From assembly GCA_964016885.1 (NCBI GenBank), contig OZ024740.1, positions 175,522,001 to 175,586,000 on the forward strand: a stretch of 64,000 nucleotides of DNA, read 5' to 3'. The notes under the pieces are model-generated. The model was not told the DNA's origin, did no database searches, and saw nothing but the letters and a program-made list of their open reading frames with translations. This document shows positions 17,089 through 20,070 of this stretch, one piece after another. The stretch's first letter is position 1. Each line of letters opens with the position of its first letter. The stretch is from Eledone cirrhosa. Lineage: Eukaryota. Both the position numbers and the translations under genes were made by a program.

Positions 17089-17665
17089 ATACCTTTCTGT
17101 CAGTTGATTGAACGTTTGAAAGTATATACTTTCCCCATGCATATTAACGGCTGAGCAGCCTAATTTGCATATCTAGTGAGTTAGTCGGCCGGGCGTACCG
17201 AAAACGATAAATGGAAAAAAATGATGAAATTTCATTTCTCACTCTTAGATACGATTGATATATATATGTATATATATATATATATATATATATATATATA
17301 TATATATATATATATATATATATATATATATATATATATATATATATATATAGCCTAAGAAAATATCTATATGCGTGTGTAATAAATACACGCATACATT
17401 TATTTTTGTAATTTCAATTGAGTTCTTAACACGTTGGATTGATAATATTTTTGAAAAAACTGATTAACCCGCGTGTATATTATTTTTTCTTTTATCGTGA
17501 ATCGTGGTTGTCTCCCTTTCCCGCTTCGTGACGCTATAATACTTCCTCAGTCAAAAACTGCTGGAATTTCAAATTTAGCGGTCATTCGATGCGTGAGGGA
17601 GCGGCTTAGCAGACACGATTTTTAACTGCGGTAGGAATTTTTTCTTATATCAAAGTTTAATGGGC

Positions 17666-17791
17666 TTCCACTGAAGATTTATAAGTGCCCACCTAAATAT
17701 ATTCTTACATGAATATATGTTAGGCTTCTACATAAACAGGGAAACATTCTCCCAATTTGTAGAAAACTTATAATGAAACAATTGTTTGGAA
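17666..17791 (+). ncRNA. Hammerhead ribozyme with branched ~95-nt stem II
   Basis: TTCCA-CTGAAGA-T-TTATAAGT..ACTTATAA-T-GAAACAATTGTT-TGGAA. Confidence 0.85.
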
Positions 17792-18657
17792 AGAGAGATA
17801 TATTTTAACTTTAAGTATATCTCATAAAATAATACAACTGGCTTTCCACAAAATACATATAGTTAGCACGCCAAACACTTAAATTGGGTTTATACAAACA
17901 TATAACCTAATGTTTGCTGAGTGAGATGGTTACCAGTCAAAGTTTAGCTTTAAGCTATCTCTGTTATTGTATTAAGTATTTTACTCTTGATTGGGCAGAG
18001 GTATTTATTTCCAGGTACCTTATAAATATGACTTTCCGTATTTATTACTATTATGGGATATGGTGGTTTTTTGGTTGTCACTTCTCTGTTTTTAGCCTAA
18101 GAAAATATATATATGCCTGTGTAAATAATTACATGCATACATTTATTTTTTTAAATTAATTGAGTTCTTAACACGTGGAATTGATATTAGTTTTGAAATA
18201 ACTAATTAACCCGCGTGTATTTAATATTTTACTCTTAATTCGGCCAGAAATTTATATTCCCAATTGCCCTTTAAAGCGTAACTTTCCGTATTTACTACCG
18301 TTATGAGATGCGGTTTGTTATTCAGGTACGACTTCTGTTTTTAGCCTAAGAAAATATCTATATGCGTGTGTAATTAATACACGCATACATTTATTTTTTT
18401 AATTTCAATTCAGTTCTTAACATGTTGGATTGATAATGTTTTTGAAAAAAACTGATTAACTCGCGTGTATATTATTTTTTCTTTTCTCGTGAATAGTAGT
18501 TGTCTCCCTTTCCCGCTTCGTGACGCTATAATACTTCCTCAGTCAAAAACTGCTGGAATTTCAAATTTGGCGGTCATTCGATGCGTGAGCGAACGGCTTA
18601 GCAGACACGATTTTTAACTGCGGTAAGAATTTTTTCTTATATCAAAGTTTAATGGGC

Positions 18658-18782
18658 TTCCACTGAAGATTTATAAGTGCCCACCTAAATATATTCTTAC
18701 ATGAATATATGTTAGGCTTCTACATAAACTGGAAACGTTCTCCCAATTTGTAGAAAACTTATAATGAAACAATTGTTTGGAA
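18658..18782 (+). ncRNA. Hammerhead ribozyme with branched stem II (unit 2)
   Basis: Same fold as 17666. Confidence 0.85.
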
Positions 18783-19645
18783 AGAGAGATATATTTTAAC
18801 TTTAAGTATATCTCATGAAATAATACAACTGGCTTTCCACAAAATACGTATAGTTAGCACCCCAAACACTTAAATTGGGTTTATACTAACATATAACCTA
18901 ATGTTTGTTGAGTGAGATGGTTACCAGTCAGAGTTTAGCTTTAGGCTATCTCTGTTATTGTATTAAATATTTTACTCTTGATTGGCCAGAGGTATTTATT
19001 TCCAGGTACCTTATAAATATGACTTTCCGTATTTATTACTGTTATGGGATATGGTGGTTTTTTGGTTGTCACTTCTCTGTTTTTAGCCTAAGAAAATATA
19101 TATATGCCTGTGTAAATAATTACATGCATACATTTATTTTTTAAAATAATTGAGTTCTTAACACGAAGAATTGATATTAGTTTTGAAATGACTAATTAAC
19201 CCGCGTGTATTTAATATTTTACTCTTAATTCGGCCAGAGATTTACATTCCCAATTGCCCTTTAAAGCGTAACTCTCCGTATTTACTACGGTTATGAGATG
19301 CGGTTTGTTATTCAGGTACGACTTCTGTTTTTAGCCTAAGAAAATATCTATATGCGTGTGTAATTAATACACGCATACATTTATTTTTTTAATTTCAATT
19401 GAGTTCTTAACACGTTGGATTGATAATGTTTTTGAAAAAACTGATTAACCCGCGTGTATATTATTTTTCTTTTCTCGTGAATCGTGGTTGTCTCCCTTTC
19501 CAGCTTCGTGATGCTATAATACTTCCTCAGTCAAAAACTGCAGGAATTTCAAATTTGGCGGTCATTCGATGCGTGAGCGAGCGGCTTAGCAGACACGATT
19601 TTTAACTGCGGTAAGAATTTTTTCTTATATCAAAGTTTAATGGGC

Positions 19646-19770
19646 TTCTACTGAAGATTTATAAGTGCCCACCTAAATATATTCTTACATGAATATATGT
19701 TAGGCTTCTACATAAACTGGAAACATTCTCCCAATTTGTAGAAAACTTATAATGAAACAATTGTTTGGAA
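19646..19770 (+). ncRNA. Hammerhead ribozyme with branched stem II (unit 3)
   Basis: Same fold; stem I TTCTA/TGGAA keeps pairing through U-G. Confidence 0.85.
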
Positions 19771-20070
19771 AGAGAGATATATGTTAACTTTAATTATATC
19801 TCATAAAATAATACAACTGGCTTTCCACAAAATACATATAGTTAGCACCCCAAACACTTAAATTGGGTTTATACTAAAATATAACCTAATGTTTGTTGAG
19901 TGAGATGGTTACCAGTCAGAGTTTAGCTTTAAGCTATCTCTGTTATTGTATTAAATATATATATATATATATATATATATATGTATATATATATATGTAT
20001 ATATATATATATATATATATATATATATATATATATATATATATATATATATATATATATATATATATAT

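Follow-up and report, generated by a model that had tools for sequence, protein, structure and literature searches.

A tandem array of a high-copy non-coding repeat in Eledone cirrhosa with a predicted hammerhead ribozyme and a branched, covarying stem II arm

The closest described relatives of the repeat analyzed here are the animal non-LTR retrozymes and the Penelope-like elements (PLEs), in particular those of the Hydra clade. Animal retrozymes are typically about 300 bp (PMC7229834), and reported consensus lengths reach 972 bp, from a search that was limited to 1,000 bp. Of 26 published Hydra hammerhead rows, 14 have a U.U mismatch and 10 a GUU triplet (PMC8557442 File S2). The U10.1-U11.1 mismatch is described as a natural hammerhead variant, weaker than G-C (PMC3088659). 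PLE hammerheads cut poorly and may depend on protein, and in one in vitro system insertion could do without them. In an Anolis PLE, priming is internal, the hammerhead needed protein, and cleavage was dispensable for insertion in vitro. Among frog retrozymes, eight of nine showed no cleavage in vitro.

We analyzed a 64,000-nucleotide stretch of E. cirrhosa DNA (the window), in which a partial tandem array lies on the plus strand at 17352-19957. We think it likely that a single insertion produced this array, that the inserted repeat is a high-copy, non-coding one of the non-LTR retrozyme type, probably copied by the reverse transcriptase/endonuclease of Hydra-clade PLEs, and that each unit bears a type I hammerhead for which self-cleavage in dimeric form is predicted and whose branched stem II arm is under selection for pairing. 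The array comprises 2.63 units of about 990 bp (two full units plus 629 bp; inter-unit identity 96.5-96.6%), is truncated on its 5' side, and stops at the fixed 3' terminus of its retrozyme/PLE-satellite family. (TA)n tracts, the insertion target, flank it at 17258-17352 on the left and 19955-20071 on the right (no strand assigned). CTGAAGA cores (CUGAAGA in RNA) start at 17671, 18663, and 19651; re-measured, their spacing is the 992 and 988 bp that a first-pass annotation had given for three cores in a ~990-bp array. Contigs from two sequencing runs of unspecified type confirm the repeat and its variants. The units differ from one another at 33, 17, and 20 positions, mostly private. Two private variants are common to different neighboring unit pairs, which could reflect gene conversion, and the within-array differences fit neither a circle nor a linear multimer exclusively.

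No long open reading frame (ORF) was found in the unit (longest ATG ORF, 75 aa; GC content, 32%), and the ORF with reverse transcriptase and C-terminal GIY-YIG endonuclease of autonomous Hydra-clade PLEs is absent from it. The first-pass annotation had also considered the monomer unusually large. However, an internal duplication of about 250 bp at 17968-18480 on the plus strand (17968-18236 versus 18216-18480, ~79% identical) takes the unit from ~740 to ~990 bp, and older subfamilies have units of ~700-770 bp, 730 and 742 bp among them. The ~990-bp unit thus appears to have arisen by duplication within ancestors of 700-770 bp. Given this duplication and the retrozymes reported up to 972 bp, its size is unremarkable, and it stands at the top of the reported range, not beyond it. 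Inside the duplicated segment, GT...AG stretches of ~65-85 nt with pyrimidine tracts were seen by eye at 18015-18097 and 18277-18344; possibly these represent the intron that PLE 5' regions typically retain. Whole-monomer folding gave z = -7.4 (20 shuffles), a value excluded as evidence because AT palindromes and the duplication inflate folding z.

The array's family is dispersed over many contigs of a microsatellite-rich, 3.0-Gb genome and has thousands of copies. The hammerhead region retrieved 2,252 genomic candidates. A core pattern with a gap of 80-110 nt between core halves gave 2,422 genomic matches, other families included, against 1 for the reversed pattern that served as control; by reading, the first 100 of these matches comprised about 87 from the array's family, 12 from a second family, and 1 due to chance. 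Variant patterns gave 366 and 1,027 matches (controls 1 and 4), in which older subfamilies are mixed with other families. Subfamilies are 70-99% identical, and other arrays in the family also have consecutive hammerhead units. In 29 of 29 other loci the 3' end falls at unit position 627-633, with variable 5' ends, so that the permuted ends the first-pass annotation had suggested looking for among other arrays give way to a single shared terminus. In a wider set, the terminal motif is present in 78 of 92 copies and TA repeats lie within 22 nt in 75 of those 78; most of the 14 copies missing it have a mutated motif, then TA. One locus (L102:1300-2170) holds a head-to-head inverted pair of family copies with (TA)n on both sides. 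The family is thus non-coding, low in GC, multi-copy, and inserted in (TA)n targets as partial tandems; the combination of a fixed 3' end, 5' truncation, and location in (TA)n is the signature of PLE insertion (PMC8557442).

The hammerhead of unit 1 occupies 17666-17791 on the plus strand, with stem I at 17666-17670/17787-17791, the core at 17671-17677, U.U at 17678/17774, stem II at 17679-17686/17766-17773, GAAA at 17775-17778, and a palindromic stem III. Those of units 2 and 3, also on the plus strand, lie at 18658-18782 (core 18663) and 19646-19770 (core 19651). Each unit combines CUGAAGA and the U.U with a stem II of 8 bp that carries two hairpins, and with GAAA, the ACAAUUGU palindrome, GUU, and a stem I of 5 bp; CUGANGA, GAAA, and NUH follow in type I order. 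Predicted cuts after 17786, 18777, and 19765 would yield monomers of 991 and 988 nt. The elements named in the first-pass annotation, namely stem II (TTATAAGT/ACTTATAA, 8 bp), both arm hairpins, the stem III palindrome ACAATTGT, and the GUU triplet, are all present in the sequence; it made no mention of the U.U that stands at 10.1/11.1 in place of the canonical G10.1-C11.1 pair. It had also read a change in stem I of unit 3 as keeping the pairing. The C>T does leave a U.G wobble, but the change is one-sided and private (shared by 0 of 48 other copies) and consequently carries no weight as evidence for pairing. GUU is a slower cleavage site.

An Rfam scan of the 64-kb window gave no match at gathering score. 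Folding of the 171-nt hammerhead region gave z = -4.96, with 0 of 200 shuffles equally stable. In 30 old copies, chosen by overall DNA similarity and not by motif, 352 of 357 core bases are conserved, and some old copies have the canonical G10.1-C11.1 with GUA. Across the family, older subfamilies have G-C or G.U with GUA and the young one U.U with GUU; we infer that the change ran from G-C/GUA to U.U/GUU. The stem III palindrome switches between ACGAUCGU and ACAAUUGU among subfamilies and is palindromic both ways, on a different branch from the other covariation; its duplex was computed at 8 bp and -6.4 kcal/mol. A palindrome that covaries in this way supports the dimer cleavage model (PMC4209133), and the array hammerheads are predicted to self-cleave as dimers. 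The description of the locus as a hammerhead in a retrozyme-type tandem repeat is borne out by the 2,422 matches against the single control match and by the covarying stems.

The part that sets this hammerhead apart is its arm of about 80 nt, which branches into hairpin IIa (17692-17724, plus strand), where sequence varies with pairing kept and 5 of 13 pairs show two-sided change, and hairpin IIb (17726-17764, plus strand), with a nearly invariant outer stem of 7 bp and an inner helix of 3 bp that holds one compensatory pair and was drawn after old copies had been seen. In 24 hand-picked representatives (~70-100% identity), 90.2% of cells are paired and 10 of 46 pairs changed on both sides; the covariation score was 0.194, against 0.109 when shuffled and at most 0.075 when slid, and the number of pairs with two-sided change in this set was not above shuffles (228/500). 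Young and middle subfamilies contain little covariation, with two-sided change in 2 of 47 pairs across 52 copies. When the majorities of the two most distant subfamilies are compared, 20 paired columns have changed and 7 pairs among them are compensatory, against a null mean of 1.2 (0 of 200,000 permutations). The compensatory pairs lie in stems I and II, in IIa, and in the inner helix of IIb; the independent events are few, and most are on one branch. In one more subfamily the sequence of IIa has been replaced once again, and its pairing is still predicted. Stems I, II, and III are all supported by covariation, mostly via one branch. The first-pass annotation had staked its proposal on the branched pairing being conserved among copies; compensatory changes keep that pairing across subfamilies, and from these alignments the branched domain appears to be under selection for pairing. 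A spliceosomal intron in the place of the arm was considered and rejected by eye, as the donor is poor and excision would disrupt stem II.

A conserved complementarity on the plus strand at 17661-17691, TGGGC (17661-17665) with GCCCA (17687-17691), is a candidate pseudoknot or inhibitory hairpin, with UGGGC just upstream of stem I and GCCCA just after the stem II strand. In old copies the complementarity is conserved 116 of 120 and 114 of 120 times, and 100 of 111 copies retain at least three G-C pairs (a count without control). None of the five pairs shows two-sided change, and there is thus no compensatory change in them. Nested folding of the monomer gives UGGGC/GCCCA a pairing probability of 0.7-0.9, versus ~0.09 for stem II and ~0.02 for stem I. 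The complementarity may stabilize, inhibit, or be incidental. With somewhat less than even confidence, we favor a role in folding control, in which IIa and IIb would self-fold, letting stem II close, and would present GCCCA to UGGGC, with the IIb stem as a candidate protein contact. The distance between core halves stays at 92-98 nt while units range from ~700 to ~1,000 bp, and the only short-loop relative matched genome-wide is a single copy, apparently a deletion; together with the near-invariant IIb, this argues for a role beyond self-folding. A pattern for arms of 40-70 nt gave 5 matches, all unrelated.

The arm could, at a more doubtful level, be tolerated baggage, an expansion of loop 2 that became fixed and whose pairing is kept only since an unfolded 80-nt loop blocks closure of stem II. 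The free turnover of IIa with pairing retained and the arms of other families in this genome, which have no evident common sequence or topology, argue for such a reading, and in most published Hydra hammerheads the loops are 3-10 nt long. It is harder to reconcile with a core spacing that held constant as the unit grew, with a short loop surviving in one deleted copy, and with the sequence kept in the IIb stem, GGGC, and GCCC. Another proposal, which we consider unlikely, is that a Hydra-type PLE lineage and its satellites built allosteric hammerheads. Here the stem II domain of 80-100 nt would be a protein-gated switch between the UGGGC/GCCCA inhibitory hairpin and an active fold, with IIb bound by the element's protein, so that cutting and circularizing would occur only with the transposition machinery; standard searches miss such hammerheads, and thousands of copies in several families would be uncounted.

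It is improbable, though worth weighing, that the young-subfamily hammerhead no longer cuts in vivo and that its fold is kept to guide recognition by the PLE protein or folding, with uncleaved multimers as template. The apparent succession from G-C or G.U with GUA in older subfamilies to U.U with GUU in the young one, the predicted competition from the UGGGC/GCCCA hairpin, the dispensability of cleavage in vitro for the Anolis PLE, and 5' ends that, among the matches listed, do not pile up at the cut site could all be read this way. However, the core bases are conserved, the covariation in the stem III palindrome is of the kind that dimer cleavage demands, and U.U and GUU are common in Hydra elements. 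It is extremely improbable that the array is a satellite amplified locally that resembles a hammerhead by chance: Rfam finds nothing and the unit is AT-rich and self-complementary, but the family is spread over many contigs, its copies stop at one 3' point and are truncated on the 5' side, all of its hammerhead stems covary, and the core pattern outnumbers its reversed control by 2,422 to 1.

Returning to the insertion of a retrozyme-type repeat, a plausible cycle would begin with read-through transcription of a tandem array. Two neighboring cores could then pair via the 8-nt palindrome and cut weakly, probably with the help of protein. The template for insertion would be a re-ligated circle or an uncleaved multimer and not the linear cut monomer, since the 3' end lies ~190 nt past the cut site and thousands of copies span the cut. 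The PLE enzyme would nick (TA)n, begin synthesis at a constant position ~190 nt to the 3' side of the cut, and copy backwards up to ~2.6 units. In the array, the segment from the cut site to the fixed 3' terminus (19766-19957, plus strand; ~190 nt) is the likely reverse-transcription start, a role that we infer from PMC11167929. Judged by eye among the matches listed, 5' junctions fall at the cut in 3 of 42 loci and at an ATATAT microhomology 11-15 nt further in 19 of 42; the lack of a pile-up at the cut fits Anolis-type internal priming, and a circular template equally.

The link to Hydra-clade PLEs, which was missed by the first-pass annotation, comes in part from other families in the genome. 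A second family has the same core context and a loop of ~65 nt, and in 7 of 25 loci an ORF lies ~540-635 nt upstream of the hammerhead. By eye, this ORF has the CxCX5C linker and the CxxC and CxH motifs described for Hydra; it has no Pfam or PDB match, and its clade was assigned by eye from the published motifs. In a third family, with an arm of 94-97 nt, 2 of 4 loci show an ORF of this kind upstream, and locus L087 adjoins another example of a Hydra-type ORF with its own hammerhead. ORF-bearing Hydra-type PLEs in this genome thus carry stem II arms of 80-100 nt, and several of its Hydra-type families have long arms in common. The clean two-hairpin junction is predicted only for the array's family, and no matching pseudoknot in a consistent register was seen by eye in the second family. 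Second-family copies are often truncated or inverted within ~10 nt upstream of the core (L066, L068, L070, L071, L073, L074, L075, L192, L194, L214), as if the long stem II stalled or redirected reverse transcription. Other, unrelated families have structured stem II arms of 78-102 nt and a palindromic stem III (L124-L129, L195, L196, L206, L218).

No coding parent of the array's family emerged. Outside the core, none of the 25 second-family loci shares DNA similarity with it, and no ORF-linked copy was found among 123 oriented copies, some of them duplicated (a further same-strand ORF lies ~2 kb away at L065); the Hydra partner enzyme is therefore an indirect assignment. Sharing of a pLTR or 3' end with an autonomous PLE was likewise not found in the 25 second-family loci or upstream of the 123 oriented copies, which sample a small part of the PLE families. 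Candidate parents were rejected: the 2.75-kb core spacing at L062 is a local duplication with another element, and the same-strand ORFs next to L184 and L087 belong to separate insertions of Hydra type, each with a hammerhead of its own. L184:1-1480 is a fragment of a Hydra-type PLE whose short-loop hammerhead also has the CAAUUG/GUU stem III; it lies directly upstream of an old family copy, with (TA)n between.

Other features were noted in the window. Short-stem type I hammerhead motifs occur on the plus strand at 6492, 21830, 43686, 53597, 58331, 59143, 62077, 62551, and 63142, with several more on the minus strand; several have U.U at 10.1/11.1 and a palindromic stem III, and two lie within a 474-bp tandem at 61694-62835. 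At 37849-38971 (plus strand), two overlapping frames, broken by a frameshift, resemble the C-terminal part of a Hydra-type PLE protein. Inverted repeats at 22347-22831 (219-bp arms, 94%) and 14621-14910 (145-bp arms, 96%) are typical of inverted PLE insertions.

The subfamilies form a natural series in which the arm is large and structured, the stems covary, and the core varies between G-C/GUA and U.U/GUU, so that experiments on dimer cleavage, on help from protein, and on the part played by the arm are easy to design. Engineered stem II aptazymes exist, and if the arm does gate cleavage, it would be their natural counterpart. The family also shows that a sizeable class of animal hammerheads goes undetected by loop-limited descriptors and by Rfam models.

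Among known systems, the animal non-LTR retrozymes are, like the array, non-coding, low-GC tandem repeats with a type I hammerhead per unit (Cervera & de la Pena 2020, PMC7229834; Li, Clavereau & Pollet 2026, 10.64898/2026.07.22.740005). An axolotl family of theirs has U.U at the base of its helix II, and a PLE origin has been proposed (PMC7229834; 10.64898/2026.07.22.740005). The array differs in that its unit is at the top of their size range and, as far as the literature examined extends, in the branched, covarying stem II domain of ~80 nt; for the array, cleavage is predicted and circles are possible. With Hydra-clade PLEs (Craig et al. 2021, PMC8557442), its family has in common (TA)n targeting, 5' truncation, partial tandems, and a short self-complementary stem III, whereas it has no ORF and a loop 2 of ~80 nt, against the published 3-10 nt. 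Minimal and dimeric PLE hammerheads (Cervera & de la Pena 2014, PMC4209133; Frangieh et al. 2024, PMC11167929) are alike in a helix II of 7-8 bp, a helix I of 4-5 bp, a palindromic helix III, and the dimer model, and their internal reverse-transcription start and protein-assisted cleavage fit the array's fixed 3' end; in the array, a three-way junction caps helix II, not a small loop. In type II pseudoknot hammerheads, nucleotides 3' of the stem II strand pair beside stem I (Perreault et al. 2011, PMC3088659), and UGGGC/GCCCA is alike in position. However, the array has type I topology and an 8-bp stem II, a geometry that may not allow the pseudoknot, and its UGGGC/GCCCA lacks covariation. In the literature examined, no PLE or retrozyme hammerhead was described as having a branched arm on stem II; long-loop variants may be reported elsewhere. 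Within that literature, a retrozyme/PLE satellite with a Hydra-type hammerhead is already a known kind, and what is novel here is the covarying branched stem II domain.
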